A stretch of DNA of 64,000 nt from an uncultured Methanosarcinales archaeon (lineage in GTDB: Archaea > Nanobdellota > Nanobdellia > Woesearchaeales > GW2011-AR15), in the NCBI GenBank assembly GCA_964512765.1, contig CAZEKF010000003.1, forward strand, positions 5,249-69,248, given 5' to 3'. Within the stretch, counting starts at the first letter, position 1; each line of letters opens with the position of its first letter. Below the pieces are notes generated by a model. That model ran no database searches. It saw only the letters and a list, made by a program, of their open reading frames with translations, and had not been told where the DNA came from. The translations under genes and the position numbers were made by a program. Shown in pieces: positions 4,033 through 60,856 of the stretch.

Positions 4033-5784
4033 ATGCGTTTAACAAAGTATGAGCATGTTATTCTTATTGGAGTTATTTGTGTATTCTTGACTGGATTATT
4101 TTTAAGTGTCAAAAATACTGTCTATACAGGAAAGGTTACAGATGATATTCTTAAAAAAGCATCTGTAGTATATTCTAAAGGAGAGTATAAAGATGCAGAA
4201 AAAATGTATGTTTCTATCCAAAAAAAGAATCCTAAGATTGATATTGTTTATTCTCATTTATTCTGGATATATTACCAAAATCCGCTCAAAGACCATGAAG
4301 ATGCTCAAGATGTTATTGACAAATACTTATCCCATTTTCCTGACAGCGTAAAAGCGCATAGTTACCAAGTAATACTGTTCTTAGATTTAAATGAGCTTGA
4401 TAAAGCAAAAAATCATATCAAACATATCAAAGGTTTAGATTATTCAGTAAGTCACTGGGCACAAGCATATTATTACAGCAAAATTGGTAAAGAATTAAAA
4501 ACAATGGAAATGCTACGAAAATATCTTAACTCAGAAAAAACTTATCACCTTGATCACTTGGAAAGAAATATATTTATTACTCTCTTACATCATCTTAAGT
4601 TCAATCATGATGTTAATGATGTTAAATGGTTTTTTGATTATTTGATTAATGAGCAGAACAATACTTATTATATTTCTGAAGCAAAACAAGCACTGTCCAA
4701 GATGTATTTAGCCAAAGGTGATTATGAAAAAGCTGAAAGAATAATAATGGATATTAACAACGCATGCTCGTATCAAGCTCTCGGTGTTTTATATTCAAAA
4801 ATGAATCAGTTTGACGATGCATTAGAGTTCTATAAAGAATCTGCTGACAAAAAGCCAGAAGATCATGGATATCAGTCAAGAACAGCTCTGAAATGTTTCA
4901 ATTACGGTGATTATGACTGTGCATTAAAATATGTTAATAATGCTATTAACCTGAAACAAGACGCTATTGTTTATAGCGAACTCAAAGGATATGTTTTTCT
5001 TGCTCTTAATAGAAGAGATGATGCCGAACAAATTTTTAATGAGTTAAAGAATAACCAAGCAAGTATCATGTCAAAAATTGGGTTAGCTCATATTCATATA
5101 ATTGACAAAGACTACTCATTGGCAATTGAATTACTGAATAAAGGTTTAAAAGAATTAAAAACAATTGAGGGTCATGAATATGAAAAAAAATATTTGATAC
5201 CTTACATTGGCTCATTTAAGGAAATTTCAGAGGACATGGCTAATCTCGGACTAGGTTGGGTACATGCTAACCAGAATCTGCATGATAATGCAATTGAATA
5301 TTATAATAAGATCCTAAACATAGATTCTAAACATTTGTTAGCAATAACCAGCAAAGCCAACTCATTAATGGCTCTTGGTAGAACAAAAGAAGCTTCGCAG
5401 TTATTACATGGCGCTTTAGAAATCTACCCCGACAACATTTATTTGATCGAGGCCAGCGGACTAGTTGATTACAATCTGGGCCAGTATGACGAAGCTGAAC
5501 AAAAGTTTAAGAAAGCACTTACTTTTAACAATGAAACATACACTTGTCCATACGAAGGTCTTGGCATGATTTATTATAAGACAGGTGACTATGACCAAGC
5601 AAAAAAGAATTTGTTAAAATCCATTGAAATTAATCCTGATATTGAATACAGGAAATATAACACCTTAGCCAAGATCTATATTAATGAAGGAAAAATAGAT
5701 GAAGCAAAAAAATTATTAGAAAAATCAATAGAAAATTTTCCGTATGATAATGAAGCTAGTGAGTTCTTAAATAACCTAAAATGA
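4033..5784 (+). CDS. membrane-anchored TPR repeat protein, CPY-GLG family
   Basis: N-terminal TM helix (VILIGVICVFLTGLFL) and many 34-aa TPR-like repeats. The C-terminal module is ETYTCPYEGLGMIYYKTGDYDQAKKNL...YNTLAKIYINEGKIDEAKKLLEKSIE, shared with six other genes in the window. Confidence 0.85.
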   Translation: MRLTKYEHVILIGVICVFLTGLFLSVKNTVYTGKVTDDILKKASVVYSKGEYKDAEKMYVSIQKKNPKIDIVYSHLFWIYYQNPLKDHEDAQDVIDKYLSHFPDSVKAHSYQVILFLDLNELDKAKNHIKHIKGLDYSVSHWAQAYYYSKIGKELKTMEMLRKYLNSEKTYHLDHLERNIFITLLHHLKFNHDVNDVKWFFDYLINEQNNTYYISEAKQALSKMYLAKGDYEKAERIIMDINNACSYQALGVLYSKMNQFDDALEFYKESADKKPEDHGYQSRTALKCFNYGDYDCALKYVNNAINLKQDAIVYSELKGYVFLALNRRDDAEQIFNELKNNQASIMSKIGLAHIHIIDKDYSLAIELLNKGLKELKTIEGHEYEKKYLIPYIGSFKEISEDMANLGLGWVHANQNLHDNAIEYYNKILNIDSKHLLAITSKANSLMALGRTKEASQLLHGALEIYPDNIYLIEASGLVDYNLGQYDEAEQKFKKALTFNNETYTCPYEGLGMIYYKTGDYDQAKKNLLKSIEINPDIEYRKYNTLAKIYINEGKIDEAKKLLEKSIENFPYDNEASEFLNNLK

Positions 5785-6485
5785 AAAAAAGATTATTTCA
5801 TGTTTTCATAATTCTTGTTTTCTTATCTTCAAGTTATTTTTTCTTTAAAACATATTTGGTCTGGGAATGTCCTTCTGATATGGTCTACGTTCCTGCTGGA
5901 AAGTTTTTAATGAGATGGACAGGTGAAAGATACAACGGATCCACTGAAAACAGTGTTTACACAAACCATTATTGTATTGACATTTATGAATTTCCAAACA
6001 TAATAGGTGAATATCCAAGATCAGCAAACTGGACAGACGCAAAAAAAATGTGCAAAGAACATAAAAAGAAATTATGCACAGAATATGAATGGCAGAAAGC
6101 TTGTCAAGGACCTAACAATTATTTATATCCTTACGGGAATGAGTTTGACGAATATAAATGTAACACACACACCAATAATACTCCAAGAAAACCTGTACCA
6201 ATTGGTTCATTTCCTGAATGTGTAAGCGGTTACGGTGTTCATGATATGAGTGGAAGTCTAAGTGAATGGGTTTTTAACACCTGGCACAATGATCCTAACA
6301 TAAAAACAATAAAAGGAGGGTCATATAATATCAATATTAATAATATGCAAAAATGGTTTAATAACACCTGGGTTTTTGTATTATATTCCAATGCCTGTGA
6401 CTCGATTCATCATCATACTATAAATAACTGGATTGCTGACGACGGGTTCAGATGTTGTAAAAATCCAAATATTAGAATTAATTAA
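5781..6485 (+). CDS. membrane-anchored FGE-sulfatase (SUMF1-like) domain protein
   Basis: N-terminal TM helix. Motifs YCIDIYEFPN, WTDAKKMC, LCTEYEWQKAC and GVHDMSGSLSEW are typical of the formylglycine-generating-enzyme fold. ATGA start/stop overlap with the upstream TPR gene. Confidence 0.7.
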   Translation: MKKRLFHVFIILVFLSSSYFFFKTYLVWECPSDMVYVPAGKFLMRWTGERYNGSTENSVYTNHYCIDIYEFPNIIGEYPRSANWTDAKKMCKEHKKKLCTEYEWQKACQGPNNYLYPYGNEFDEYKCNTHTNNTPRKPVPIGSFPECVSGYGVHDMSGSLSEWVFNTWHNDPNIKTIKGGSYNININNMQKWFNNTWVFVLYSNACDSIHHHTINNWIADDGFRCCKNPNIRIN

Positions 6486-6494
6486 AAATTAGCT

Positions 6495-7901: not shown

Positions 7902-7934
7902 TTATTTAATTGATTATTTCTATTATTATAAAGA

Positions 7935-8756
7935 TTATGTGTGTTTTATGAAATAATTAAGATCAAAGAACTGATTATAAAAAAAAGTAAGAGTTGTAAT
8001 TAAAACTAAACTCAGTTTAAAGTTAAGGATATCTTTGATTAAATAATTAACAAACAAATAAGGATTATATAAAACAATTCGTTTTACTAAGTTAATAAAA
8101 TTGTTTGGAAGGTCATAACTAAAAAAACTCCAGTTTCTTGCAGTTTTAATAACAGAAATAAGAATGTCTTTTTTAAGATGATAACATACTGCTTTTGGTT
8201 CATATACTAAATGATAACCAGATTTTTTGAGTTTATTAGAAATGTCAACGTCTTCATAGTTAGTTTTGTATTTTTCATTGTAACCATTAACTTTTTTCAA
8301 TGCCGAAATTTTGAATATTGTGTTTGAACCAAACAAGAACTCTGGGTTTTTGATTAAGTTATTTCCCCAGTGTTGTTTTAAGTGAAATGAACGCCATTTA
8401 TCTGGTAGTGACTTTGTGTTTTTTTCAATTAACTTGCCACCAACTCCAACAACATTTCTTTTGTTAAAATGCTTTGTAATATGCTTAAACCAGTCTTTGG
8501 AAACAAGAACATCTGCGTCAATAAAACCAATAAACTCAGTTTTACAATGGTTTAAAGCAATATTTCTTGCGTTTGCCAGGTGTTTAGCTTTTTTGTTAAG
8601 AATTTTTATTTTATATTTTTTAACAAGGTTCAAAGTATTATCTGTTGACCCAGAATCTATCACATAAACATTTTTACTAATTTCAAGAACACTACTTATA
8701 CATTGTTCAATAGTTTTCTCAGCATTTAATGTTGGTATATAAATATTAAATTTCAT
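7935..8756 (-). CDS. GT2 family glycosyltransferase
   Basis: Motifs [29 protein letters not shown] and FIDADV (DxD). Confidence 0.8.
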
Positions 8757-12056: not shown

Positions 12057-13601
12057 TTGTTAAAGAAATTAGTGTATAAAACTAGTAAGAATAAAGAGTC
12101 TCTTGTTATACTTGGACATAATGCTGAACTGCACGATAGAATTTGTAAAACACAAGGTGATTTTGAATCTAAACTTGAAAATTTAAAAACAACATTATCT
12201 CAACCAATAACAATAGGAATTACAAGACATAATTTCTTTCTATTAGGAGAAATAATTGACTTCATTAACAAGTTCTATTATCAAGAAACTATGTTCAGGA
12301 AAGTTAAAATAACACTTTTCCCTGTGCAAGAACTAAAAACTAATTTCCTCGCATATCTAAAATACCTTAAACAAAAGTCTGGAGATAAGTTCGAGTTCAA
12401 GATAATGGACTCAAAATTGATTGAGTTGTTTGAAACTTTAGGAAATAATTCAACAGGTGATAAATATCAAGACAGAGAACTAATTAGACTGCTCGGAATT
12501 ATATCAGAACATACGTTCATTGGCCCTGAACAAATTGTAATAGATCCATTTCATAAATGTAATACTAATTGTGTACATTGTTGGAACCATGCGCCTACAT
12601 TAGATCTTACAAAAGAATGGAAAGATCAAATATTGAAACCTGATTTTTTAAAACGTTTAATAGACGACGCTGCCAGGTTAAAAGTTGATCTGTTAGTGTT
12701 CGGCGGTGCAGGTGAACCATTAATGTATCCGAAAATAATCGAAATATTTGAATACGCGTCTCAACAAGGGTTAAAGATTATTGTGTCTACCAATGGTATT
12801 AACTTAACAAAAACCATGACAAACAGGTTGTTAAATTGTAACCTGTCAGAGTTAATATGCAGTCTGCCTGCTGCTTCTAATGCAACATATGAAAAAGTTA
12901 ATCCCATGCATAAAAGTAAAAAAACTTTTGAAACAGTAGTTAAGAATCTTAAATATTTCACCAAACAAAAAACATTACTTAGCAAAAAATCAAAACTTAG
13001 CATGTACCATGTAATACATAACCTTAACTACCATGAGATTAAAAACATGGCAAAGCTTGACCTTGATATAGGTGTTGACATTGTTAGATTTAATTTAATT
13101 AGATTACAAAAAGAATTCATGCACTTGAAACTTAACAAAGCTCAATTGAATTCAATAAAAAACAGTATTGATTTTGTTAAAGCATATTACACAAATAAAC
13201 CAATAATATTACAAAACAATATACATTTCCAGATCAAGAATTTCAAGCCAGAAACAGGTGAATGGTCAGGTTCAATATTAAATGACTGGGGTTGTAAGCT
13301 TGGCTGGTTTTTTTCGTTAGTATTAGCGTCCGGCCAGTTAAGCTTGTGCTGCCATGTTAGAGAGATTGAAAATTTGAAAAATAACAATAGTTTCAAAGAA
13401 GCATGGCTTTCAAAACAATACTCAGATTACAGGTTCAAAGCTAAATATATTAAAAATCATAAAAATACAGAGTTTAAAAATAAAGTAAAGTTGTATGATG
13501 ATAAATGTGAAAATTGTGATAATCATGTTACTTTAATAAAAATTGAAGAAAAAATAAAAAAATACAATCTTGGAGAATTTTTTGAGTATAATGGCAGCTA
13601 A
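12057..13601 (+). CDS. radical SAM protein with an N-terminal extension of about 165 aa (array head gene, outlier)
   Basis: TTG start preceded by GGGGGAG. Motifs DPFHKCNTNCVHCWNH, FGGAGEPLMYP and STNG. C-terminal GCKLGWFFSLVLASGQLSLCC (Cx12Gx4C) and CENC. Confidence 0.8.
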   Translation: MLKKLVYKTSKNKESLVILGHNAELHDRICKTQGDFESKLENLKTTLSQPITIGITRHNFFLLGEIIDFINKFYYQETMFRKVKITLFPVQELKTNFLAYLKYLKQKSGDKFEFKIMDSKLIELFETLGNNSTGDKYQDRELIRLLGIISEHTFIGPEQIVIDPFHKCNTNCVHCWNHAPTLDLTKEWKDQILKPDFLKRLIDDAARLKVDLLVFGGAGEPLMYPKIIEIFEYASQQGLKIIVSTNGINLTKTMTNRLLNCNLSELICSLPAASNATYEKVNPMHKSKKTFETVVKNLKYFTKQKTLLSKKSKLSMYHVIHNLNYHEIKNMAKLDLDIGVDIVRFNLIRLQKEFMHLKLNKAQLNSIKNSIDFVKAYYTNKPIILQNNIHFQIKNFKPETGEWSGSILNDWGCKLGWFFSLVLASGQLSLCCHVREIENLKNNNSFKEAWLSKQYSDYRFKAKYIKNHKNTEFKNKVKLYDDKCENCDNHVTLIKIEEKIKKYNLGEFFEYNGS

Positions 13602-15759
13602 GACCGAAATTAATGCGCATGTAATATCTAAGCTTTTAGATAGAATTAATAATAATACAAAACAAAACTTTGTTTTGCCAAAAAAATACGTGTTTTGTAT
13701 AAATGATTCATGTTCATTCAGGTGCAAAATGTGTTTCAACTGGACTAATAAACCCCACCCTGAGTTAACATATGATGACTGGATAAGGAAACTCGAAGAA
13801 ATAAATGAATATGGTTCTGAAAATGTTGAGATTAACATTATTGGTGGTGAACCTTTAGAAATACCTTGGGTGATTGATTTAATAAAACACGCGAAACAAC
13901 TAGGTTTTATTGTAAGTTTGTCAACAAACGGGTATCATCTTAATAAAACAATGGTTAAGAAATTGTGTAACTCTGGTCTTGATGATATATCCATCTCATT
14001 AGACGGGTTTAAAGCGTCCACGCATGACTATGTAAGAGGCATAAATGGATCTTATGATAAACTTATGGAAGGTATGAAACTGTTACAATTGTATTCAAAC
14101 AGGCCTAGAATAAACATTCAAACTTTAATCATGGGATATAACATAGATGAAATTATAGATTTAACAAAGTTTGTTTCAAAATCAAAATTAGTTGATAAGG
14201 GAATAACGTTCATGGCTGTAATGAAACCTAATGATAATGTTTCTGGTAACTGGAGAACGAATTCTGAACTATGGCCAAAAGATATACCTAAAACACTAAA
14301 GACAATTAAAAAATTAATAGAGTTGAAGAAGAAAGGTTACAGAATCCTTAACTCAAATAAACAGTTAAAGGGATTTTATAATTATTTTAAAGAGCCTGAT
14401 TTGTTTGTTAAAAACAAACCATGTAATGTTAAAGATTTTGGCGCGTTCCTTGAAACAACCGGAAATGTATACATATGCCGAGAACTAGGTGAATTAGGAA
14501 ATATTAAACAAGAAAACATAATTGATGTTCTTAATTCTGACATTTCAGATATTACAAGACTAAGCATGGAAAAATGCACAGAAAATTGTAATTATCTAAT
14601 AAACTGTTTTTACCAGGACGAAGATGAAAATAATGATCCTGTTGTAAGTGTAACAAAACCTGTTAGTAAATCTGTATTACTACAACCAGACAAAAAAATT
14701 AAGTTACATACTAACCTGAAAAACGAATTACTCAATAAAAGTTACAAACCTAATTTCTGCTTGTTAATTATATCTAGGGGGTGTCATTACAAGTGTAAGA
14801 TGTGCAATTATTGGAAAGAAGATAAAAAAACTACTCCAACGTTAACTTATGACGAAATAACTACTATTGTTGATGATCTCAAAAGAATAACTGACGAAGA
14901 TATTGTTGTTCATTTAATAGGCGGTGAGTCAATGCTGTTCCCAAGGTTTGTTGATGTTGTAAAATACATACGGTCAAAAGGGTTCAGGTGTTCAGTTTCT
15001 ACTAACGCAAGTTTATTAACAAAGTCAATGGCTAAAAAATTAATAGACGCTGACATGACAGGAATTTTTGTATCCTTGGACAGTCTTGATGAAAAAAAGC
15101 ATGATTATTTACGAGGTACAAAAGGCGCGTATAAAAAAGTAATGAACGCTATTGATAACTTGTACGAGTACAAGGAAAAGGTGAAATCAAAGTTATGCAT
15201 TGGCGTAACTGTTACTATTATGCAACACAATCTCCATGATGTTATCCCAATTGTTGACTGGGCAAATGATAACCCTAAGATAAATGATGTTTTTTTTAAC
15301 GCTGTCATGCAACCGTTTGAAAATCAAGACCAGTCAAAAGACTGGTATAAAAAAGAACAGTATGAAATGATCTGGCCGCAAGATCTTAACGAAGTTCAAG
15401 AAGTTATTGAACAATTAAGAGAGCGTAAGAAAAAAGGTTGGAAAATATCTAACCCTTCATCTCAATTAAAAGTTGTTAAACAATATTTCAAAACACCGTG
15501 GAGTTATGTGAAAAATCTTGGTATTAAATGTCCGAGGGGTGATTTAGCATTAGAAGTTGACGCTTGTGGTAATATTAACATGTGTTTTTATGACGACCCA
15601 ATCGGTAACATTAGAGAAACTAACCTGTACAATGCATGGTATTCACAAAAAATGTTAGAAATCAGGGAAAGGATTAACACTTGCAGTAAAGACTGTGATC
15701 TTGCAGTGAACTGCTTTTACATGTTAAAAAATATTACAGATTATATTAGTGAGGATTGA
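13570..15759 (+). CDS. fused double radical SAM protein (two complete family modules, subgroup D)
   Basis: Module 1 has INDSCSFRCKMCFNW, IIGGEPLE and CTENCNYLINC. Module 2 has ISRGCHYKCKMCNYW, LIGGESML and CSKDCDLAVNC. The ATG at 13591 is a more likely start than the TTG at 13570. Confidence 0.85.
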   Translation: MENFLSIMAAKTEINAHVISKLLDRINNNTKQNFVLPKKYVFCINDSCSFRCKMCFNWTNKPHPELTYDDWIRKLEEINEYGSENVEINIIGGEPLEIPWVIDLIKHAKQLGFIVSLSTNGYHLNKTMVKKLCNSGLDDISISLDGFKASTHDYVRGINGSYDKLMEGMKLLQLYSNRPRINIQTLIMGYNIDEIIDLTKFVSKSKLVDKGITFMAVMKPNDNVSGNWRTNSELWPKDIPKTLKTIKKLIELKKKGYRILNSNKQLKGFYNYFKEPDLFVKNKPCNVKDFGAFLETTGNVYICRELGELGNIKQENIIDVLNSDISDITRLSMEKCTENCNYLINCFYQDEDENNDPVVSVTKPVSKSVLLQPDKKIKLHTNLKNELLNKSYKPNFCLLIISRGCHYKCKMCNYWKEDKKTTPTLTYDEITTIVDDLKRITDEDIVVHLIGGESMLFPRFVDVVKYIRSKGFRCSVSTNASLLTKSMAKKLIDADMTGIFVSLDSLDEKKHDYLRGTKGAYKKVMNAIDNLYEYKEKVKSKLCIGVTVTIMQHNLHDVIPIVDWANDNPKINDVFFNAVMQPFENQDQSKDWYKKEQYEMIWPQDLNEVQEVIEQLRERKKKGWKISNPSSQLKVVKQYFKTPWSYVKNLGIKCPRGDLALEVDACGNINMCFYDDPIGNIRETNLYNAWYSQKMLEIRERINTCSKDCDLAVNCFYMLKNITDYISED

Positions 15760-15765
15760 AAACTT

Positions 15766-18827: not shown

Positions 18828-18831
18828 AAAA

Positions 18832-20680: not shown

Positions 20681-20690
20681 TTTCATAGTT

Positions 20691-21785: not shown

Positions 21786-21799
21786 CCGAGGATGGACAT

Positions 21800-22861: not shown

Positions 22862-22866
22862 TAAAA

Positions 22867-23886: not shown

Positions 23887-23947
23887 ATTATCAACTGAAG
23901 ATTTAAAAACAAATACCTTATCTGTTAAAAGAAGATAAAATACAAAA

Positions 23948-25051: not shown

Positions 25052-25056
25052 AAAAA

Positions 25057-28191: not shown

Positions 28192-28223
28192 TTATATAAA
28201 ACAATAAATAATGTACAAAAACA

Positions 28224-51233: not shown

Positions 51234-52925
51234 TTATGAATTTGTTTTCTTAAAATAATAAATTAACAAAAAGACTGTTAACATTGAAGTTATTAAACCT
51301 ATCACATAGCTTGTTGGCAAATAATAAAATTCAACTGTTGTTTCATTTGAATTTACATGAGTTGAGAATAAACCATTTGTATCAATCACATCATGTGTCT
51401 TTGACTTCCATCCTTTGTGATAATTCTGGTTTAATACCAAAACATCATCATCTGTTAAATTAATGTTTACAATAACTCTGTTCGGTGAAAAATAATCAAT
51501 TGAAGCTTGTCCATTATCATGTAAAAGATACGCTTCTCCCCTATACCAATCATTCTCCTTCGGAATCACTGCAGTATCTAATTTAAGGTTTTCATAACAA
51601 TCAACATTACCAACATTTTTCAGGAAGTTAGGATATTCTGAATTGTCATAATCATATTTAACACTTGTTTGGTAAAATTCTTTCTCAGGTTGGATTTTGA
51701 TTGGTTCTATGTCAAAGGTATTGTTAATAATTGGGTAACTAACTGTGCCAAGATCTATTAATATAATAAAGACAAATAAATAAAAAATGAATTTCATTAT
51801 ACAATTTTTTTTAATTCTTTTATGAAGTTCATTTAAAAAAAAACCAGTTGTAACTGCAAAACAAAACAAAAACATAATGTTAAACCTTGACGGTAACCTT
51901 AGCGAACTAAAAACTGGAAACATGTGCAACAATTTCCACAGTCCAAATTTAACATTACCCAAGAATAAATTAAAAAATACTGCAGTTAACAAAACAAACT
52001 TCCAGGCTTTTTTATAAAAAAAAGGCAAACATAATAAAAAAAGTATGACAGGCAGGAACCCAACATATGTACCATACTCATGCCACCAGTACGGTGTAAT
52101 ATCAGAAAATTTCATATGATTCTGATCCCTGGACAATATTGAATGGTATACCAGGTTAAGGTCAAGTTTCTGATTCAGTTCTGTTTTTCTAGGATGTTCA
52201 GACATTATTTCTAGCATTGGTAAAATTTTAACAGAACCTAGTAACAAAAAGATCAAAGTGACAAAAACCAAATTCATTACAGGCTCAATTTTCCTCTTTT
52301 CAACTGACTCAAAAACCGCATACATGAACAATAACAAAAGAGTAAATGGAAGTATTGTATAAGAACCACTGAATAACATTAGCAATAAAACTAATGAACA
52401 ATAAACAATGTTAATCTTATTTTCTTGGATCCTGAGATAAAATAACATTGCCCAAGGTATAAATACTATTGACCAATAAGATTGATGACCTTCTATTACT
52501 CGTAAAGCAAATGTACTTGAAAACATAAAAATAAAAGATGAAATTATAGAAGCTAAGTCTGATAGTTTTAATTGTTTGCATAGCACATACATTCCGAGCA
52601 AACCTGTAAAGAAATATAACAAGAGTTGCACCTTAAGTCCTAAGTCAACCCCTAACATAAGTGTAAAAACAAAAAAAGGTGATAAGGATAATGAATGAGG
52701 AAGTGCTAAATATACATTCCCTCCACAGTAATACGGGTTCCATAACGGCATTTGACGATATTCTAATATTGTTTTCCTGGGAACAGCATTAAAAAAACTT
52801 AACTGGTTCCAGTCACGGTCGCCCCATTTATCATAATTCTGAAAAACAGGTGATAAATAAAGTAACGAAACAATTGCAAAAAAATACAACATTTGTTTAG
52901 TTTTATTACGCATTTTATTAACCAA
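51234..52925 (-). CDS. polytopic membrane protein, YfhO-like/GT-C-like
   Basis: 563 aa. The N-terminal loop DRDWNQLSFFNAVPRKTILEYRQMPLWNPYYCGG resembles the conserved first loop of YfhO-type proteins. About 12 or more TM helices plus a C-terminal soluble domain and a final TM helix. Confidence 0.45.
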   Translation of the reverse strand: MVNKMRNKTKQMLYFFAIVSLLYLSPVFQNYDKWGDRDWNQLSFFNAVPRKTILEYRQMPLWNPYYCGGNVYLALPHSLSLSPFFVFTLMLGVDLGLKVQLLLYFFTGLLGMYVLCKQLKLSDLASIISSFIFMFSSTFALRVIEGHQSYWSIVFIPWAMLFYLRIQENKINIVYCSLVLLLMLFSGSYTILPFTLLLLFMYAVFESVEKRKIEPVMNLVFVTLIFLLLGSVKILPMLEIMSEHPRKTELNQKLDLNLVYHSILSRDQNHMKFSDITPYWWHEYGTYVGFLPVILFLLCLPFFYKKAWKFVLLTAVFFNLFLGNVKFGLWKLLHMFPVFSSLRLPSRFNIMFLFCFAVTTGFFLNELHKRIKKNCIMKFIFYLFVFIILIDLGTVSYPIINNTFDIEPIKIQPEKEFYQTSVKYDYDNSEYPNFLKNVGNVDCYENLKLDTAVIPKENDWYRGEAYLLHDNGQASIDYFSPNRVIVNINLTDDDVLVLNQNYHKGWKSKTHDVIDTNGLFSTHVNSNETTVEFYYLPTSYVIGLITSMLTVFLLIYYFKKTNS

Positions 52926-55407
52926 TTTCCTGAATCATCTCATGTGCCAGGTCATAATATGGACAAGTTTGAATCATGGATAAGTTTGTCATTGAAATAA
53001 AGCGCTCAGCTTTTTCATAATCTTGTTGGTTATACTCAAATAAAGCTAGCATCATGTACGTACATTCAACATCATCCTGGTTCAAATCTTCTCCTGGTGA
53101 TGAATCAGTAACATTTAGAAACATGTTAAACATATTTTTTGATTCGCTATATTTTGACTGGTTAAAATAAATTAAACCCAGGTGGTAATGTGCTATGTAA
53201 AACTCCGGGTCAATATTTAGTACTTCAACAAACATTTCTTCAGACGATTCATAGTCTCCTTCTTTAAAATAAATTAAACCTAGTCCTTCATACGGACACG
53301 TGTACGTGTTGTCACCTTTTTCAATTGCTTCAGAATATTTTTGTTCAGCGTATGTGTAATTACTCAAATGATAATTAAATTCTCCAATTTCAGCAATAAT
53401 GTACTGGTTATCTTTGTAAAGAGATTCTGCCTCATATAGCAGTAAAAGTGCTTGAGATGATTTGTTTTGATCAAAATAAAATCTTGCCAGTTCAAGATAT
53501 ACCATATAATCTTTATTTTCACTCTTGTACGCATTGTCAAAATAGATTTTAGCTTTTAAGAACTTTTCTTGACCAGTTAAGATTTTACCATAGCCAATGT
53601 TTGCTAAATAATTGTTTGGTTCTTTTTCCAGTACATTAATAAACAATTGTTCAGCATTTTTAAACTCATTATTATCATAATACACCCATGCTAAATCTGT
53701 AAGAACATTTAGGTTATCCGGGTCAAGTTCCTGTGCTTTAAGATACATACCTTTTGATTCTGGTAACCTGGCCAATTTATAGAATATTTTAGCAAGTGTA
53801 ACATAAGATTTTTTTAAAATATCAACATTATTACTCTCACCGCTCTCCGTGGAACTTGTCATAATTTCCACTGCTTTCAATAAAGAGTTTACTGCTTTAT
53901 CATATTCTTCTTGTTTATAATAAGCATGACCTAATCTGCTATGTATATCTCCTCTTCCGGGACTTATCAATAAAGCTTTCTCATACAATTCTATAGATTT
54001 ATCATAGTTACCTTCACTAAAATATATTAACCCGAGACCGTCATATGGGCATGTGTACGTATCGTCACCTTTTTCAATTGCTTCAAGATATTTTTCTTTT
54101 GCATAAGTATAATTTTCAAAATGTAAATTAAACTGACCTATCTCAGCTATAATATACTGATTATCTTCATACAGAGACTCTGCTTCATAAAGCATGTCAA
54201 ACGCGTCTTTAGTTTTGTTCTGGTTAAAATATAATCTTGCAAGTTCAAGATATATTAAAAAATCTTTATTATCATTATTATAAGCACGAGAAAAATATGT
54301 GTGTGCTTCTTTGATGTTACCTTCATTAACCAATATTTTACCATATCCAATGTTTGCCAAATAATTGTTCGGATCTTGGTTCAATGCTTCAATAAACAAT
54401 AATTTTGCATTTTTAAATTCATTATTATCATTATACACCCAACCAAGGTTTGCTAAAATTTCAGTGTTATTGGGATCAAGTTCAAGCGCTTTAAGATACA
54501 TATGTTTTGATTCACTGAATCTGGCTTGATTAAAATATATTTTTCCAAGCATAATATAAGTTTGTTCAAGACTTTTTTCATGTTTTTCTTTATGAATTAT
54601 TTCAGAAGTTAAAGCAAGTTCCAATGTTTTTTTTAAAGAAGAAACAGCATCATCATACTTTTCTAAATTAAAATAGATTTTTCCCAATTTATAATGAGCA
54701 TATTTTTGGTCAGGTTCTAATGATAAAGATTTTTTAAAATAATCTATTGCTTTATCATTGTTTTTTTGTTCATAATAAACAGATGCAAGCCCTGAATACG
54801 CATACACATTATTGTTTGTTATTTTGAGAGATCTTCTAAAAATAATTTCAGCATTTTCATAATCTTTTAACTCGTAATATGTCCAACCAAGTTCATTAAG
54901 AATTTCCTGATTGTTTGATTCAATTTCTACAGCTTTTGTAAAAATATTTTTAGCTTCATGATATTTGTCAAGTCTAAAAAGAGTAATTCCATAGTCCATG
55001 TACACCCATGCATTGTTAGGGTCTAGTTCAAAAGCTTTCTGAAAATATTTTTCTGCTTCAGTAGTGTCATTATCTAAAAGAGAAAGTTTTGCCAAGCCTA
55101 AATAACCTAAAGAATCGTTATTGTTAAGTTCCAAAGATTGAATAAACATTTTTTTTGATTCATTAAATTTATTGATTTCAAAATACGCCATTCCAAGTTC
55201 TGAATAAACCTTACTATTATTTTGGTTGATTTCAAGTTCTTTTTTGTAAAGTTCAATTGCTGTATGGATATTACCTTTGTTAAATTCTGTTAAACCCTGT
55301 CTAAAATAGCTCTTATCTGTTTTTTGATAGATTATAACCAATAAAGAACCAAATAGTACTAAACAAAGTAAAATTAACACTCTTTTCTGATAAATACTTT
55401 TTCTCAT
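52918..55407 (-). CDS. membrane-anchored giant TPR protein, CPY-GLG family, with an internal tandem duplication
   Basis: 829 aa with an N-terminal TM helix. Motifs DTYTCPYDGLGLIYF (res ~449) and NTYTCPYEGLGLIYF (res ~700), plus a degenerate QTCPYYDL near the C-terminus. Confidence 0.85.
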   Translation of the reverse strand: MRKSIYQKRVLILLCLVLFGSLLVIIYQKTDKSYFRQGLTEFNKGNIHTAIELYKKELEINQNNSKVYSELGMAYFEINKFNESKKMFIQSLELNNNDSLGYLGLAKLSLLDNDTTEAEKYFQKAFELDPNNAWVYMDYGITLFRLDKYHEAKNIFTKAVEIESNNQEILNELGWTYYELKDYENAEIIFRRSLKITNNNVYAYSGLASVYYEQKNNDKAIDYFKKSLSLEPDQKYAHYKLGKIYFNLEKYDDAVSSLKKTLELALTSEIIHKEKHEKSLEQTYIMLGKIYFNQARFSESKHMYLKALELDPNNTEILANLGWVYNDNNEFKNAKLLFIEALNQDPNNYLANIGYGKILVNEGNIKEAHTYFSRAYNNDNKDFLIYLELARLYFNQNKTKDAFDMLYEAESLYEDNQYIIAEIGQFNLHFENYTYAKEKYLEAIEKGDDTYTCPYDGLGLIYFSEGNYDKSIELYEKALLISPGRGDIHSRLGHAYYKQEEYDKAVNSLLKAVEIMTSSTESGESNNVDILKKSYVTLAKIFYKLARLPESKGMYLKAQELDPDNLNVLTDLAWVYYDNNEFKNAEQLFINVLEKEPNNYLANIGYGKILTGQEKFLKAKIYFDNAYKSENKDYMVYLELARFYFDQNKSSQALLLLYEAESLYKDNQYIIAEIGEFNYHLSNYTYAEQKYSEAIEKGDNTYTCPYEGLGLIYFKEGDYESSEEMFVEVLNIDPEFYIAHYHLGLIYFNQSKYSESKNMFNMFLNVTDSSPGEDLNQDDVECTYMMLALFEYNQQDYEKAERFISMTNLSMIQTCPYYDLAHEMIQEIG
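52993..54702 (-). repeat. intragenic tandem repeat: 753-nt (251-aa) unit, about 2.3 copies
   Basis: Residues ~236-486 align with ~487-737 at a constant 251-aa offset. For example, ATTTTACCATAGCCAATGTTTGCTAAATAATTGTTTGG at 53582 matches a near-identical string at 54335. A partial third unit follows. Confidence 0.8.
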
Positions 55408-56192
55408 GTTTGCTCAGTTTGATTTAATAAATTTAATGCTTCATTATTATAAGGATCATATCTTAACCATAACCCAAGTATTTTGTTTGCTTCATCATAA
55501 TTTTGTTCAGACATGTGAATATCATACAACAGTTTATATTTTTCATTAATAATTCCAGGTCTAAAATTTATTGAACTATTCAAATAGTACTTTGATTTTT
55601 CAAAATTGTTTTGCTTATAATAAACCATCCCCAGTCCTTCATACGGGCACGCAAACGTTTCACCTTCTTCTGCACCAGATTCAACTAATCTTAATGATTC
55701 GTTAAGATATTTTTCAGAATTTTCATAATCTCCAGTAAAATAATATACAAATCCAAGGTAATTATAAGCATATGGATCATCTGGATTATCTTTAATTATT
55801 TCTTTGAAAACAGAGATAGCTTCTGCATAGTTTTTTTTATGCATGAATAGTTTCCCGAAATCTACTCTTGTCCTTGTTTTATTAGGTTCCAAGCTATGTG
55901 CTTTAGCTAATGCTTTTTCTGCCATTTCTGGCATATTTTTTCTTAGAAATATGTCAAACAATAAATTGTAAGAGTCTGTATGTTCAGGATTTATTTCTAA
56001 TGCTTTCAATACATAAAACTCTGATTCGCTAACATTGTTAGAATCATATTGTTGCTGCGCATGAAGATATAATGATGTTACGTTCATCAATTCGTTGTCA
56101 GATTTTGATACATTCACTAAAACACCAATAAAAAGTAATAAAAAGACAAAACAAAAGCATACAACTAATATTTTTCTTACACTTTCCCCCAT
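55404..56192 (-). CDS. membrane-anchored TPR protein, CPY-GLG family
   Basis: TM helix ILVVCFCFVFLLLFIGVLV. The C-terminal module is ETFACPYEGLGMVYYKQNNFEKSKYYL. 4-nt overlap with the next TPR gene. Confidence 0.85.
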   Translation of the reverse strand: MGESVRKILVVCFCFVFLLLFIGVLVNVSKSDNELMNVTSLYLHAQQQYDSNNVSESEFYVLKALEINPEHTDSYNLLFDIFLRKNMPEMAEKALAKAHSLEPNKTRTRVDFGKLFMHKKNYAEAISVFKEIIKDNPDDPYAYNYLGFVYYFTGDYENSEKYLNESLRLVESGAEEGETFACPYEGLGMVYYKQNNFEKSKYYLNSSINFRPGIINEKYKLLYDIHMSEQNYDEANKILGLWLRYDPYNNEALNLLNQTEQT

Positions 56193-56239: not shown

Positions 56240-56803
56240 TCACGCAATTGGACAGAGAGTTTGTTTCACAATTGACTCATAACGTTCTAAATCAACATCC
56301 AATGGTAAAAATAGTTCAATAAAATACAATCCATCATTCTCACAATATTGGAACTGTAATATGCTATTATACTTAATTAAGTCCTGTGAGCATGCTCCGT
56401 AGGTTAACCTGTCAGTTGCTTGTATTATATAATAACTATGTGGCGTGTTTTTAATCTCAATTGGTGTAAACTCGCTGCTGCATTCCACTTTATTAGATAA
56501 CAGGCCAGGGTAAGGCGAGTGAACTTCTCTATACAATGAAAAAATAAAAAACATTTTCTCAGAAATATACTCGTCAACTTTATCTTGTTGAACATTGTCA
56601 AATTTTTTAACCTTAAGAACCATGTTATTATGAGTTCCTTTATATGTGACAGAGTTATAATCGTCAGATACCTCAACTAAATCAAAATTATTAAAAAAAT
56701 CGTTTGAAGTTCTTAAATAAGTTTTATCACTCGGTGTGCAACTCATTAAAAAAAGTATGACTGTAATCATAACAACAAAATAATTTTTCATATCTTCAAA
56801 CAA
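56240..56803 (-). CDS. putative lipoprotein or secreted protein of unknown function
   Basis: Signal-like N-terminus ending in the lipobox-like LFLMSC. Four further Cys residues. Confidence 0.4.
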   Translation of the reverse strand: MFEDMKNYFVVMITVILFLMSCTPSDKTYLRTSNDFFNNFDLVEVSDDYNSVTYKGTHNNMVLKVKKFDNVQQDKVDEYISEKMFFIFSLYREVHSPYPGLLSNKVECSSEFTPIEIKNTPHSYYIIQATDRLTYGACSQDLIKYNSILQFQYCENDGLYFIELFLPLDVDLERYESIVKQTLCPIA

Positions 56804-56814
56804 TATTAAATACC

Positions 56815-57612
56815 TTAAATTGTTTTCGTATAGTCTTTAATAGATACAAACTTTTGTTTCTTAAGCAATTTTTCAAAACTATTTTTAATATTAACTGAAT
56901 AAAACAGCCATTTAGGATTTTTTATTAAATATTTTAAACTAAGAAAGTATGATTTTGACCTATAAATTTGCCACGGGTGAACAAACAAAAGATTGTATTT
57001 TCTTTTATTCATGAGAAAACCTGTGTTAAACTTTGCAAAATAACCTGAACCGTACGGAAAACCTTGTAACAAAAGGTTAAGGTTAAGGTTTCTTGGTATT
57101 TTTTTAGGATTTATTTTGTAAAACGGAAATAATGAAACAGGAATTTCATCAATACCACATAAAAAATTAGTTATTGGTTTAACATAATAAATTGAAGAAT
57201 CATATTCAAGCCCTGTTTGTTTCAACACACTAAACATTTTTTTGTTAATTATCATGAACGGTGCCCTGAATCCTTTTGGTTTGTATTTGTTAAGGAATTT
57301 TTTTGAATATTGAATTTCTTTTTTCAAATCTTTTGTATTATTCAATATTTTATGTGTATTCGTGTGGTAAGCTATTTCATGGCCTTGTTTTTTTATTTTA
57401 TCAATTAATTCAGGGTACCAATCATATATTTCTGACACAATGAAAAACGTTGCTTTATTCTTGCTCTTTTCCAACATTTCAAGTATTATTTCTGTTCCTT
57501 TTACAATGTCTCTGTTGTCAATAGTTTTACGATCTTCAGAACTCAAGTTAGGATCAAGATCAGGGTTTGCGTGTACCCATGATTCCAAGTCAATCGTAAG
57601 AATGTTTACCAT
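56815..57612 (-). CDS. polysaccharide deacetylase (CE4)-like protein
   Basis: N-terminal LTIDLESW and GHEIAYHTNTH motifs, typical of CE4/DUF3473-type deacetylases. Confidence 0.7.
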   Translation of the reverse strand: MVNILTIDLESWVHANPDLDPNLSSEDRKTIDNRDIVKGTEIILEMLEKSKNKATFFIVSEIYDWYPELIDKIKKQGHEIAYHTNTHKILNNTKDLKKEIQYSKKFLNKYKPKGFRAPFMIINKKMFSVLKQTGLEYDSSIYYVKPITNFLCGIDEIPVSLFPFYKINPKKIPRNLNLNLLLQGFPYGSGYFAKFNTGFLMNKRKYNLLFVHPWQIYRSKSYFLSLKYLIKNPKWLFYSVNIKNSFEKLLKKQKFVSIKDYTKTI

Positions 57613-58280
57613 TTTCTAACATATTTCATTTTTAATAATTTAATAAGTAATAACAATGGGTCTATTAGTTTAAACTTAGTACCTTTATTTGTTTTTAGTT
57701 TGACAGGAACTGATGTAATTTTGCACTTTTTTCTCCTAGCTTTTATCAACAGTTCAACATCAAACAACCATCTACTATGGATTAGATCTTTGAACAACAA
57801 GTCCGCAACTTTTTTATTATATCCTTTTAATCCTGAGAAACAATCATTTATGTTTAGGTTAAACAGCATATTAACAATTGTGTTAAATGATTTACCTAAC
57901 ATAAGTCTAAAATTTAATTTCCTTTTATTACTATATTTATTTCCAATTACAATATCATAATTGTTTAGTTTATCCTGGATTTTCAAAATATCAGTTAAAT
58001 AAAAAGAATCATCTGCGTCAATCCAAATTATATTTTTTCCATTAGCTTTTGAAACTGCTTTTTTAACTGCATAACCTTTACCTTTATTTTCTTTGTAAGA
58101 AATTAATTTAATGTTTTTATTAACATATTTTTTGACAATAGTTTCTGTGTTGTCAGTTGAACCGTCATTAACCAGTATTACTTCAAGATCATGTTTTTTT
58201 GAAAATTTTGATAATAATCCAAGAAATGACAAAACTCTTTTTTCTTCGTTATACATAGGAACTATTAAAGTGGTTTTCAT
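57606..58280 (-). CDS. GT2 glycosyltransferase, polyprenyl-phosphate sugar synthase-like
   Basis: Motifs TLIVPMYNEE, ILVNDGSTDNT and WIDADDS. Confidence 0.8.
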   Translation of the reverse strand: MKTTLIVPMYNEEKRVLSFLGLLSKFSKKHDLEVILVNDGSTDNTETIVKKYVNKNIKLISYKENKGKGYAVKKAVSKANGKNIIWIDADDSFYLTDILKIQDKLNNYDIVIGNKYSNKRKLNFRLMLGKSFNTIVNMLFNLNINDCFSGLKGYNKKVADLLFKDLIHSRWLFDVELLIKARRKKCKITSVPVKLKTNKGTKFKLIDPLLLLIKLLKMKYVRKW

Positions 58281-59983
58281 TTCAGTGTAACATAATAATT
58301 TCCAATAAACAAGTGTTGATTACGTGTTTTTAGCTGTGTTATAACAGCATCCTCAGGTGTGTTAACAATTGGACTTCCATGGATGTTAAAGCTTGTATTT
58401 AATACAATACCGTGACCGGTTTCTTTTTTTACTTTTTTTAGCACAGACTCATACTTTGGATTTTCTTTACCTAATATTTGTGGCCTAATAGATTTGTCAA
58501 CATTCATAACAGATCTTGCGTTCTTAACAGAATTTGGTTTCAACATGTAACCCATTGTCATATATTTGTCATAATAAACTTTATTTTCATTAATGAATTT
58601 TGATGCATCTTTTTCTAAAATAGAAGGGCAAAAAGGTTGGTACCATGACCTTTTCTTAATCTGTAAATTTAACTCATTTTTAACTTCAAGATTTGAAGCA
58701 GATGTTAATACACTTCTATTGCCTAACGCTCTTGGACCAAATTCCATCCTACCTTGGTGCCAGAACACAATTTCATTATTAGTAATAAGTTCACCTGCGT
58801 GATTAGAAACATCTTTTTCTAGCTTATAATTAAGCTTATTTTTGTATTTCTCAAGTGTTTCAAGTATTTCATTGTCACTGTATTCTGGTCCGAGATAAAC
58901 ATTTTCCATTCTGTACGGTTTTGTTCCGTATAGTTTATTAGAAACTAACAAAGCAGCACCTGCTGATAACCCTGTATCACCCATTGCAGGAAACACGTAA
59001 CATTTGTTTACGTTTTCAAGCTGTCTAATTTTCATGTTCATTTTAATGTTTGAAGCAATGCCACCTGCTAGTACAACATCTGGAATACCTGTTCTTTCTA
59101 TAGAGTTTTTAACAAATTTTGTAGTGAAATACTCTAATGCAGTTTGTGCCATGTGCGCAAAGTTTTCTGGCTTGTTCTTCCACAACAAATTCTTTAGAAA
59201 ATAATATCTTTTGTACAAAGGATAGTTTGACTTAATCCTTGTACCTCTAACAGAAAACAGTTTCAGCATTGGATTCTTACTCTTTTCATTACTGTAAGCA
59301 TAATCTGACAATGCCATTACTTTACCTTCATCTTCAAGAATTCGCATGCCCATTATTGATGTAACTTCTTGAAAAAATAATCCTAACGAATCTTGTGTTG
59401 TGTTTTTTGAAATTGTTTTGATTGAATTATTGTCACAAACACTAACTGTTGACGAATATCCGTCTCCCAGTGCGTCCATTGTTACAGAAGTTGCTCTTTT
59501 TAATCCTGAAGTATAATACGCAGACGCTGCGTGTGCTTTATGATGATCAACTAAATGCAACCTTGTCTTGTTCATGTCAAAACCAAGTTTAGAAAGGTAT
59601 TTAGTCAGAGCATATCTTGAAAATTTCCTAAAAATAGAATTAGACTTTAGTTTTCCTGTCTGGTTCAATATTTGTAAATCAATGTCCCAAGTAATAGGTT
59701 TATCTACAAGATGTCTTCTTCGTTTGTACCAAAAATCGTTTTTTAACCATGACACTCCTCTTGTTAATGTAGCTGCCCAGTCTGACGTTGAGAATGCAAT
59801 GTCTTTGATATCTTTTGGGTTTAAATTATTAGATGAAAGACAATACTTAATTGAATTGTACGGAAACAAAATTTCAAGCTTTCGTCTTGTGAACCTTTCT
59901 TCACTAACAGCTGATTTTATCTTGCCATTTTCAATTAAACAAGCGCTTGAATTATGCCCGTCCCATATGCCTAGAACCTTCAT
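58277..59983 (-). CDS. carbamoyltransferase (NodU/CmcH family)
   Basis: Motifs KVLGIWDGHNSSACLIENGKIKSAVSEERFTRRK, VDHHKAHAASAYY and NTSFNIHGSPIV. 568 aa. Confidence 0.85.
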   Translation of the reverse strand: MKVLGIWDGHNSSACLIENGKIKSAVSEERFTRRKLEILFPYNSIKYCLSSNNLNPKDIKDIAFSTSDWAATLTRGVSWLKNDFWYKRRRHLVDKPITWDIDLQILNQTGKLKSNSIFRKFSRYALTKYLSKLGFDMNKTRLHLVDHHKAHAASAYYTSGLKRATSVTMDALGDGYSSTVSVCDNNSIKTISKNTTQDSLGLFFQEVTSIMGMRILEDEGKVMALSDYAYSNEKSKNPMLKLFSVRGTRIKSNYPLYKRYYFLKNLLWKNKPENFAHMAQTALEYFTTKFVKNSIERTGIPDVVLAGGIASNIKMNMKIRQLENVNKCYVFPAMGDTGLSAGAALLVSNKLYGTKPYRMENVYLGPEYSDNEILETLEKYKNKLNYKLEKDVSNHAGELITNNEIVFWHQGRMEFGPRALGNRSVLTSASNLEVKNELNLQIKKRSWYQPFCPSILEKDASKFINENKVYYDKYMTMGYMLKPNSVKNARSVMNVDKSIRPQILGKENPKYESVLKKVKKETGHGIVLNTSFNIHGSPIVNTPEDAVITQLKTRNQHLFIGNYYVTLK

Positions 59984-60049
59984 TTTTAATTTTTTGTAAA
60001 TAAAAACCTCAATAAAACCCCTTAAAAAAGAATAAAAATAAACCTTTTA

Positions 60050-60856
60050 TTAAACTTTGTGCAAAGATTCCTGCATCCGTATAAGCTGGTCATTGTTCGG
60101 TTCAATATTTAAACCTTTTATTATTATTTTTTCTGCATCCTCTGTCCTGTTCTGACTAATGTATATCTCCACAAGTTGAATATATTGCAGAATTCCTCCG
60201 TAAGGTTGAATACTTAAAGATTCTTCCAAATATGTTTGAGATTCGTTGAATTTACCTAATTCATAATATACCATGCCTAATCCTTTGTATGGACACTCAT
60301 AATGTTCATAGTTATATCCTATTGCTAATTCTTCTGACTTTTCAAAATATTCTTTAGCCCTACTATAGTTCTTTAAATCATAATACATTTGACCTAGCAA
60401 CCAGTATGTTTCTGATTTGTCTGGAAAAGTTTTATTTAACTCATCCAAAATATCAATCATTTTTTCATGTTCCTGCAAAATTTGGTATACATGAGCAAGT
60501 TCAAAATTTGGTTCAAAGTTTGATGAATTATAAGCTATCAACAAAGTTTCAGCTTTACTGTAAGATTTCTCATCAATGAATATTTTTGATTTTAATACAA
60601 TTAAATCTTCATTATTTGGTTCTGTTTTTAACAAAGTGTTGACTATAGTAAGAGCGTCTTCGTATTTTCCAGATTCAAATTTATTAGTAGCAACAAGTTT
60701 TAAAGAAGAAAATGAAGAAATGTCTATAATTTTTTCAGGTTTATTATCATTTAATTTGAACATGTCACGGTTAAATAATTGGAAAACGAAAAATAGTGTA
60801 ATAATAAAAATGAACAAAACAAACATTGTTTTTTTAGATGTGGTTTCTTGTTCCAT
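60050..60856 (-). CDS. membrane-anchored TPR protein, CPY-GLG family
   Basis: TM helix MFVLFIFIITLFFVF. The C-terminal module is HYECPYKGLGMVYYELGKFNESQTYL. Confidence 0.85.
   Translation of the reverse strand: MEQETTSKKTMFVLFIFIITLFFVFQLFNRDMFKLNDNKPEKIIDISSFSSLKLVATNKFESGKYEDALTIVNTLLKTEPNNEDLIVLKSKIFIDEKSYSKAETLLIAYNSSNFEPNFELAHVYQILQEHEKMIDILDELNKTFPDKSETYWLLGQMYYDLKNYSRAKEYFEKSEELAIGYNYEHYECPYKGLGMVYYELGKFNESQTYLEESLSIQPYGGILQYIQLVEIYISQNRTEDAEKIIIKGLNIEPNNDQLIRMQESLHKV

Follow-up and report, generated by a model that had tools for sequence, protein, structure and literature searches.

The 64,000-nucleotide stretch of archaeal contig CAZEKF010000003.1 analysed here, referred to as the window, encodes seven proteins that combine an N-terminal membrane anchor with tetratricopeptide repeats (TPRs), and in which particular repeats open with a cysteine-proline signature. 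Judged by its sequence, the C-terminal module that carries this signature defines a distinct and widespread protein family, hitherto unnamed and undescribed, and the Cys-repeats are the conserved working part of this family. The reading that we favour, and hold to be probable by a modest degree, is that the seven proteins belong to, or are shortened or duplicated offshoots of, an exported TPR family that partners glycosyltransferases of the GT-C fold and other envelope-glycan enzymes.

An earlier note on this DNA had listed seven open reading frames (ORFs) with an N-terminal anchor and TPRs; all of them are present, each with one N-terminal hydrophobic helix, and all seven score above the Pfam cut-off on TPR_1/TPR_2/TPR_8. 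Protein A (4033–5784, forward strand, 583 residues), the full-length archetype, consists of the N-terminal transmembrane (TM) helix, an upstream Cys-repeat (ACSYQALG, C245) and the C-terminal module (TCPYEGLG, C505) at residues 488–583. The six other genes lie on the reverse strand. Protein C (40514–41677, 387 residues) carries the TM helix, TPRs and a full C-terminal module with TCPYQGLG (C305). Protein B (39193–40440, 415 residues) starts with a Lys-rich, predicted cytoplasmic tail of 57 residues, followed by the TM helix, TPRs and the C-terminal module, in which, as had been seen before, Ala takes the place of Cys (PAPYNGLG); the whole protein is free of Cys. The short proteins F (55404–56192, 262 residues) and G (60050–60856, 268 residues) each have a TM helix and a divergent C-terminal module, with ACPYEGLG (C182) and ECPYKGLG (C188), respectively; C188 is the sole Cys of protein G, whose gene is flanked by two carbamoyltransferase genes. 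Protein E (52918–55407, 829 residues), whose gene overlaps gene F by 4 nucleotides (nt), has two Cys-repeats (C453 and C704) and a third motif-like string, TCPYYDL, close to its C-terminus, while protein D (43788–44858, 356 residues) carries a Cys-repeat of the upstream type (DCPYQALG, C275) and not the C-terminal module. The string PYxGLG begins at residues 506 (A), 326 (B), 306 (C), 454 and 705 (E), 183 (F) and 189 (G), preceded by Cys everywhere except in B. As a separate observation, an assembly variant (L076, position 10593, about 5458 in the window) has a 1-nt deletion just upstream of the Cys motif of gene A that splits the gene into products of 476 and 72 residues, by real polymorphism or by sequencing error.

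When the motif is projected on the 34-residue TPR, Cys falls on position 2, Pro on position 3, Tyr on position 4 (usually Trp or Tyr in TPRs), Gly-Leu-Gly on positions 6–8 and a further Tyr on position 11, and the motif repeat matches positions 4/5–33 of the 34-residue Pfam TPR models, as an ordinary TPR_1/2/8 unit would. Cys occupies position 2 in proteins A, C, F, G and, twice, E; in B the position is taken by Ala, and D displays the upstream variant CPYQALG. The surmise that a Cys within a TPR helix is unusual was borne out by a survey of 81 unrelated TPR proteins, where Cys at position 2 was found in only 2 of 830 helix-A starts (0.24%) and Cys-Pro in one, as against 8 of the 22 helix-A starts of the seven window proteins, the overall Cys content of which is 0.65%; the frequency in the window is far beyond chance. 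A large part of the consensus as it was first written down (GLG..YY..G.....A......K.I...P) turned out to be plain TPR consensus, yet family-specific segments do exist, namely Y-[TS]-C-P-[YHF]-E-G, IEYKKYN.LAKIYI and LL.KSIENYPYD.EA..LL. A sequence search of the PDB with the module returned consensus TPRs (CTPR) only, none of which spans the Y-T-C-P-Y-E-G, IEYKKYN or ENYPYD segments; these designs align to the first module repeat only from 'LG' onward, at no more than 35 bits per domain.

A hidden Markov model (HMM) of the module was built from sequences outside the window only, and the window proteins were scored per domain; on this scale, ordinary repeats within the same proteins reach 37.8 bits. 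Clearly above generic TPRs, and with the module at the C-terminus, stand proteins A (144.8 bits), C (121.3 bits, residues 289–385), B (94.4 bits, residues 308–404), F (68.4 bits, residues 174–261) and G (56.4 bits, residues 177–266). Protein E is borderline, with two internal matches (48.4 and 55.8 bits) that cover the first repeat only. Protein D, with 34.5 bits at residues 274–353 near its C-terminus, is indistinguishable from ordinary repeats on this HMM, since these score up to 37.8 bits. It belongs to a second, upstream type of Cys-repeat, with the consensus gCPYQALG.LY...G...KA.....KAAD, on whose HMM D reaches 67.5 bits and the C245 repeat of A, ACSYQALG, which the earlier note had missed, 90.8 bits. 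By comparison of the two profiles, the module as first described merges two related repeat types: a [CA]PYx[GA]LG repeat is indeed shared by all seven proteins, but the proposed uniform module of about 80 residues is not, D having the other repeat type, E the first repeat only, and F and G divergent versions. The two motif copies of the giant protein E, likewise reported before, were confirmed and originate from an internal tandem duplication of 248 residues (260–507 versus 511–758, 55% identity), which copied the Cys-repeat together with roughly seven repeats upstream of it.

The distinctness of the family was assessed by a profile search of 1.84 billion representative sequences, which returned 195,854 TPR proteins. 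As the ranking by whole protein was swamped by giant generic TPR proteins, the best 150 were re-scored per domain. Among these 150 the scores are bimodal: 67 representatives (clustered at 50% identity) reach 74–143 bits per domain, and the remainder do not exceed 50 bits. Almost without exception, the module of these 67 proteins stops no more than 24 residues short of the C-terminus. Pfam and NCBIfam gave only generic TPR matches to the seven proteins and hold no model specific to the module; the NCBIfam models PrsT, MamA and PilW stay far under their curated cut-offs on the TPR proteins of the window, no solved structure covers the module, and literature searches found no description of it. 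Word-indexed searches were of limited use here. With the module alone as query they returned fragments of at most 160 residues, informative on the motif and not on architecture, and with full-length protein A the word index yielded three matches.

When genomes were scanned for the family, one per species, 65 loci turned up in 28 metagenome-assembled genomes (MAGs) of 22–74% GC, with up to six loci in one MAG. Carriers include archaea labelled Woesearchaeota as well as Omnitrophota and Myxococcota. One relative, P0111, is 40% identical to protein A, and the members of its NCBI cluster are labelled "Candidatus Woesearchaeota archaeon" or "archaeon". Module matches from two archaeon-labelled MAGs, SI037_bin40 and SI047_bin43 (22–24% GC), are among the closest, at 55–61% identity, while the closest single module match (58%) is assigned to a MAG labelled Planctomycetales; several of the submitter labels on MAGs appear to be unreliable. 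The window itself has a GC content of about 29% and stems from marine metagenome assemblies; scans with Rfam and for tRNA genes found no rRNA, tRNA or Rfam features within reach. A DPANN archaeon is the likely source.

The genome scan is uninformative on the conservation of the cysteine, because its search pattern required Cys; the profile search did not. In the latter, the motif Cys is present in 66 of the 67 representatives, with window protein B as the sole exception. Across 61 sequences from outside the window, the C, P, G, L and G of the motif are conserved to 100% and the E to 98%, along with K54, N56 (98%), L58 and A59 of IEYKKYN.LA, the pair L74-L75, and N81 of ENYP. Cys, Pro and Glu of the motif are better conserved than the canonical TPR residues, the residue after Pro is exclusively Y, H or F, and the residue preceding Cys is T or S in 60 of the 61 sequences. 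Full-length members never lack either cysteine, the upstream one or that of the module (40 of 40 aligned), and the upstream Cys is kept even where the rest of its motif has degenerated, as in GCMFHARAMMY. The distance between the two cysteines in these 40 proteins ranges from 243 to 363 residues and varies by whole repeats.

The AlphaFold2 (AF2) model of protein A, computed from an alignment of 40 sequences (pLDDT 91.5, pTM 0.84), consists entirely of paired helices. The module motif forms the helix 505–516, with C505 as its first residue and T504 as the cap, and the upstream motif forms the helix 244–256. In TPRs, positions 2, 5, 6, 9 and 12–13 of helix A line the concave face. From these position rules, combined with the predicted secondary structure of A, the Cys at position 2 and the Glu at position 5 would face the ligand groove, together with the K and N of the following repeat. 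Foldseek searches with the model retrieved generic long TPR superhelices only (OGT, SPINDLY, APC/C subunits, IFT-A and Ski3).

The position of the Cys at a helix start raises the question of whether its thiol reacts as a nucleophile or coordinates a metal or haem, such that the module would be a catalyst or a sensor. Thiols at the N-terminus of a helix can be activated by the helix dipole, and C-P-[Y/H/F]-E recalls the CPYC and CPHC active sites of glutaredoxin and DsbA as well as the Cys-Pro haem-regulatory motifs. The placement of C505 as first helical residue in the model of A would suit such chemistry, and so would the strict conservation of Cys, Pro and Glu and the restriction of the third position to Y, H or F. 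No second set of catalytic residues was identified, however, nor any homology to an enzyme; the likeness to the CPxC and haem motifs extends over three residues only, and protein B dispenses with the Cys. We regard this explanation as improbable. The broader proposition, that an invariant Cys at the start of a TPR helix on the outer membrane face is chemically active in some manner, as a nucleophile, a covalent tether or a redox switch, rather than a passive contact, is to be considered distinctly unlikely as well.

The TPR proteins of the window possess a single N-terminal helix with K/R on its N side, corresponding to anchors of the uncleaved type, and have no lipobox. In protein B, 17 K/R precede the TM helix, while 0 K/R and 7 D/E follow it. 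Across the family, K/R are heavier on the N side in 25 of 39 cases and on the C side in 7, and 18 of the 67 representatives carry a lipoprotein signal peptide ending in L-x-[AGS]-C. Because of these positive-inside anchors and lipobox signal peptides, the TPR domain and its Cys are predicted to lie outside the cytoplasmic membrane. The topology prediction that the earlier note had called for thus places the motif on the extracytoplasmic side.

In such a location a disulfide has to be taken into account, either to a partner (a TPR paralogue, a GT-C enzyme, or one of the Cys-rich secreted neighbours of A and B) or between the two Cys-repeats. Candidate partners are at hand in the proteins encoded at 5781–6485 (10 Cys) and 37772–39097 (20 Cys), and full-length members always hold two invariant cysteines. 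Against this, spacings of 243–363 residues that change in whole-repeat steps would, from TPR geometry, ill fit one fixed intramolecular bond, and a fixed disulfide joining both Cys-repeats was set aside as unlikely on this ground. Moreover, the motif Cys occurs just once in each of the short proteins C, F and G, and is the only Cys that G contains, protein B has none, and no conserved partner Cys was identified. A disulfide of either type is therefore judged unlikely, if worth keeping in mind. Independent sites are favoured over a single fixed disulfide, because the spacing of the two cysteines varies and the short paralogues carry one Cys each.

Evidence for the partnership with GT-C enzymes comes from the gene context. 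Directly upstream of D lies a gene (44800–46512, reverse strand) for a protein of 570 residues and about 13 TM helices; its end overlaps gene D, and the GT-C gene is translationally coupled to the TPR gene. On the AF2 model (pLDDT 88.3, pTM 0.92), and by structure only, the protein is assigned the GT-C fold: the Foldseek ranks 1–9 (probability at least 0.9) are all GT-C enzymes, including ArnT (5ezm/5f15), ALG9, AglB, EmbA/B, PimE, AftD and ALG3, with the top five at probability 1.00 and TM-scores of 0.34–0.45. On PMT_2 it scores 22.8 bits, below the cut-off of 26.1; some of its homologues carry PF13231/PF09594, and its family shows an invariant YWD120TY motif. A second polytopic membrane protein (51234–52925, reverse strand, 563 residues, about 10 TM helices) is encoded directly downstream of F and E, with which it forms a run of overlapping or tightly spaced genes. 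It has no PMT_2 match in Pfam, but is paralogous to the product of 46588–47814, which has a weak PMT_2 match (E = 3e-5), and it may be GT-C-like, too. Finally, a 191-residue ORF at 63360–63935 (reverse strand) matches the C-terminal part of a 724-residue membrane protein encoded on L071 (5323–7497); the window ends inside this gene. The 724-residue protein belongs to a polytopic family of about 730 residues and 10–16 TM helices, other members of which are encoded on L011 (10270–12489) and L012 (1589–3757). This family is homologous to that of 44800–46512 (hhalign probability 99.8%, E = 7e-29), has no match in Pfam, NCBIfam or PDB sequences, and its gene is usually followed by one for a carbamoyltransferase. 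PDB sequence searches with the GT-C alignments likewise found nothing.

For a wider view, neighbours were scored with local HMMs within about 10 kb of 63 non-redundant module loci (28 MAGs, 0.92 Mb); clusters of neighbours contaminated by antisense shadow ORFs in high-GC loci were discounted. A member of either of the two homologous polytopic, GT-C-like families occurs within 10 kb in 14 of the 63 loci and 13 of the 28 MAGs, at a distance from the module-TPR gene of at most 3 kb in 12 loci and at most 300 bp in 7. A fusion is seen on L007, a contig of the archaeon-labelled MAG SI037_bin40, where a single ORF of 1109 residues joins a GT-C domain to the TPR region. The GT-C part forms the N-terminal half and is 52.5% identical to 44800–46512, and the TPR region, though it no longer possesses an anchor, still includes the two Cys-repeats as well as the module at the C-terminus. 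The idea that the TPR proteins are substrate-recognition partners of the neighbouring GT-C-like transferases is supported with regard to a probable physical or functional partnership, to which the GT-C fold, the adjacency in 13 of 28 MAGs, the L007 fusion and the overlap with gene D point; in this partnership the TPRs may recognise the acceptor substrate.

The opposite relation, in which the TPR proteins are acceptor substrates of the GT-C enzymes and are glycosylated at the [ST] beside the Cys or at an upstream N-x-T sequon, deserves mention in view of the T or S that precedes Cys in 60 of 61 sequences, and of the N-x-T found five residues upstream in low-GC members (NNETYTC, NNKTYTC). The sequon is missing from high-GC members (DDKNYTC, GGEGYTC), T or S at this place is the residue expected to cap a helix, and the GT-C–TPR fusion points to a subunit rather than to a substrate. 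We consequently give this relation hardly any credence.

In the picture that emerges, a signal anchor, or in bacteria a lipid anchor, would keep the family members at the outer face of the membrane, where they would assist, without catalysing a reaction themselves, GT-C-fold glycosyltransferases that depend on polyprenyl-phosphate sugars, as well as further enzymes that tailor envelope glycans; in TMTC-type enzymes this part is taken by the lumenal TPR domain fused to the GT-C domain. The polyprenol-phosphate sugar donors could come from the products of five short GT2 genes of the window. In the signature repeat [ST]-C-P-[YHF]-x-[GA]-L-G, the Cys and the Glu at position 5, together with KKYN of the next repeat, would line the concave ligand groove, and the two Cys-repeats of full-length members probably represent two separate sites along the superhelix. 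These sites may bind an extended ligand, a glycan chain or an acceptor polypeptide, or dock an enzyme, and the Cys would presumably be a free thiol or touch the ligand, instead of being cross-linked by a radical SAM enzyme.

Several points weigh against this interpretation. About three quarters of the loci have no GT-C gene within 10 kb and show heterogeneous neighbours, so that the family may be a general envelope adaptor. The GT-C–TPR fusion is known from contig L007 only and does not occur among the 67 representatives. The enrichment of GT-C genes near module-TPR genes is argued from the adjacency counts themselves rather than from background frequencies in whole genomes. The groove position of the Cys derives from general TPR rules and from AF2 secondary structure. 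Lastly, protein B keeps the module without the Cys, which implies that the fold does not need it.

Among known systems, a close parallel is provided by TMTC1-4 and the prokaryotic PMT_2-TPR fusions, which are O-mannosyltransferases. TMTC enzymes comprise an N-terminal GT-C domain and lumenal C-terminal TPRs, and full-length prokaryotic homologues exist (PMC7801869). In both systems a GT-C transferase is paired with an extended TPR superhelix located outside the cytoplasm, and the relative on L007 even reproduces the fused layout; the present family could represent the unfused counterpart of the lumenal TPR domain in TMTC-type enzymes. Differences are that the TPR part is usually encoded here by a separate gene with its own anchor, and that the GT-C partner families have no or only sub-threshold PMT_2 signal. 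None of the seven window proteins, with one TM helix each, unites GT-C and TPR in one polypeptide, and neither 44800–46512 nor 51234–52925 nor the 730-residue family exceeds the threshold on PMT_2 or DUF1736. We know of no report of a Cys-repeat signature in TMTC. OGT and SPINDLY structures (1w3b, 6eou, 7y4i) rank near the top of the Foldseek matches for protein A, and in OGT the concave face of the TPR superhelix binds the acceptor substrates. These are, however, cytoplasmic GT-B enzymes without the Cys signature, and the match is generic to long TPR arrays, with APC/C, IFT-A and Ski3 scoring equally well. BcsC, PgaA, PelB, AlgK and PrsT (PEP-CTERM) resemble the present family as exported or lipid-anchored TPR proteins in glycan-biosynthesis clusters. 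Yet the NCBIfam matches to PrsT, PgaA and BcsC are weak and far under the cut-offs (PrsT, 112.7 versus 312.2 bits), and, in comparison with the periplasmic scaffolds BcsC, PgaA, PelB and AlgK, the family here lacks a porin domain and has other partners. It is best filed as a new, undescribed Cys-signature TPR family of a known kind, the TPR adaptor of GT-C glycosyltransferases.

The earlier note had counted about 20 radical SAM enzymes in the neighbourhood and had speculated that the Cys is a modification or cofactor-attachment site. The count is correct, with 19 radical SAM/SPASM and 4 B12-radical SAM ORFs in the window. Fifteen of the former form an uninterrupted array of paralogues on the same strand throughout (12057–29231), and further paralogues lie at 34115–35197 and 47871–48950. 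Thirteen ORFs of the array have 326–367 residues, a 288-residue member (19814–20680) is devoid of CX3CX2C, and a 729-residue member (13570–15759) has two such motifs; most paralogues share C[NLF]FKCK[MHQ]C. A tandem radical SAM/SPASM array of this length is unusual. At its end, on the opposite strand, resides a gene (29241–31277) whose 678-residue product has some 13 TM helices and weakly matches a domain like that of spermine/spermidine synthases (PF01564, E = 4e-7). The ORFs 41908–42399 and 42357–42818 are overlapping halves of one radical SAM/SPASM gene; the window copy (41908–42818) is frameshifted or an assembly error, because a population variant (L004, 2728–3639) has a single ORF of 303 residues.

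The corresponding rival explanation, covalent modification of the Cys by a cytoplasmic radical SAM/SPASM enzyme before export (a thioether cross-link, formylglycine or similar), takes its appeal from the sheer number of these genes in the window, and from the fact that one radical SAM/SPASM gene shares a cassette with the TPR gene in about 8 MAGs. Furthermore, the paralogues are short and have CX3CX2C at residues 17–58, which leaves no space for an N-terminal recognition domain. This layout resembles the anaerobic sulfatase-maturating enzymes (anSME), which modify a Cys in proteins (sulfatases) before their export. The wider survey gives a different picture. Radical SAM/SPASM genes were found within about 10 kb in 8 of 63 module loci and B12-radical SAM genes in 9, so that co-occurrence of motif and maturase is not consistent; the Cys is invariant although the other 55 loci have no radical SAM/SPASM gene in this range. 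In addition, C-P-Y-E-G is unlike the C-x-P-x-R site of anSME and of the formylglycine-generating enzyme (FGE), no NCBIfam model, peptide-maturase and anSME models included, reaches its cut-off on the paralogues, and the cassette enzyme travels with carbamoyltransferase, QueC-like and B12-radical SAM genes, which would fit tailoring of a sugar or small molecule. The radical SAM proteins of the window have no signal or TM segment; as modification could precede export, in the manner of anSME, the proposal is unsupported rather than refuted, and we rate it as very improbable.

The cassette just mentioned comprises the Cys-TPR gene and genes for the 730-residue GT-C-like protein, a carbamoyltransferase, a B12-radical SAM protein, one radical SAM/SPASM protein, a QueC-like protein and a GT2. 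It recurs in about 8 MAGs of 24–74% GC (L006, L011, L012, L023, L029, L033 and L036), and in the window it covers 56240–63935. Extra genes are DUF5989, next to the carbamoyltransferase in the strain variants of the window (L071–L073), and a small protein with 3 TM helices in L011, L012 and L058. Carbamoyltransferase genes were seen in 13 of the 63 loci. Where no GT-C gene lies within 10 kb, the neighbours include Abhydrolase_2 esterases, LRR proteins, a CDP-alcohol phosphatidyltransferase and FGE-like domains with or without a methyltransferase. The window as a whole is a glycan-type gene island and also holds genes for several polytopic PMT_2-like proteins, two polysaccharide deacetylases, two carbamoyltransferases, a GT4, an epimerase, a GDSL protein and a QueC-like protein. 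Past one end of the window the island continues with a PMT-type GT-C, a third carbamoyltransferase and an asparagine synthase, and past the other with the 724-residue membrane protein, a phosphodiesterase-family protein and a protein of 1220 residues, as read from L074 (1–5993) and L071 (1–7497), so that the island spans at least 76 kb.

The Cys-rich secreted neighbours merit a short description of their own. The gene at 5781–6485 (forward strand) overlaps the end of gene A by 4 nt and encodes a secreted FGE-sulfatase-like protein of 234 residues with an N-terminal hydrophobic segment and 10 Cys (PF03781, E = 1.8e-17); the TPR-FGE pair recurs in L014. Secreted Cys-rich FGE-like domains adjoin module-TPR genes in MAGs of 22–73% GC (L014 4174–4905, L010 10277–11911, L053 1054–3066, L064 3058–4260 and L066 7711–8850), and in some of these proteins the domain is joined to a SAM methyltransferase or to 8 TM helices. 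Judged by eye, they have a single Cys where true FGE has a Cys pair, and on this account they may be non-catalytic. Action of the FGE-like neighbour on the motif Cys was rejected as a working idea, as the motif is not C-x-P-x-R and the neighbour seems to have the single Cys. The gene at 37772–39097, directly downstream of C and B on the same strand, encodes a protein of 441 residues with an N-terminal anchor, 20 Cys and no Pfam match.

TPR domains are usually seen as passive, sequence-variable binding scaffolds. In this context it is of significance that a Cys-Pro signature at the start of a helix surpasses the canonical TPR residues in conservation, from archaeal MAGs of 22% GC to bacterial MAGs of 74% GC. 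The link to GT-C enzymes offers a testable handle on the way in which an acceptor is chosen or held by the stand-alone GT-C enzymes found in uncultured microbes, and the analysis draws attention to a conserved cassette of GT-C, carbamoyltransferase, B12-radical SAM, radical SAM/SPASM, QueC-like and GT2 genes. If the organism is a DPANN archaeon, a surface-glycan island of at least 76 kb would make up a large share of a small genome and would bear on the interaction with its host. Should the Cys prove to be chemically active after all, a machine for glycan assembly common to DPANN archaea and many bacterial phyla would contain a repeat module converted to catalysis or covalent capture.

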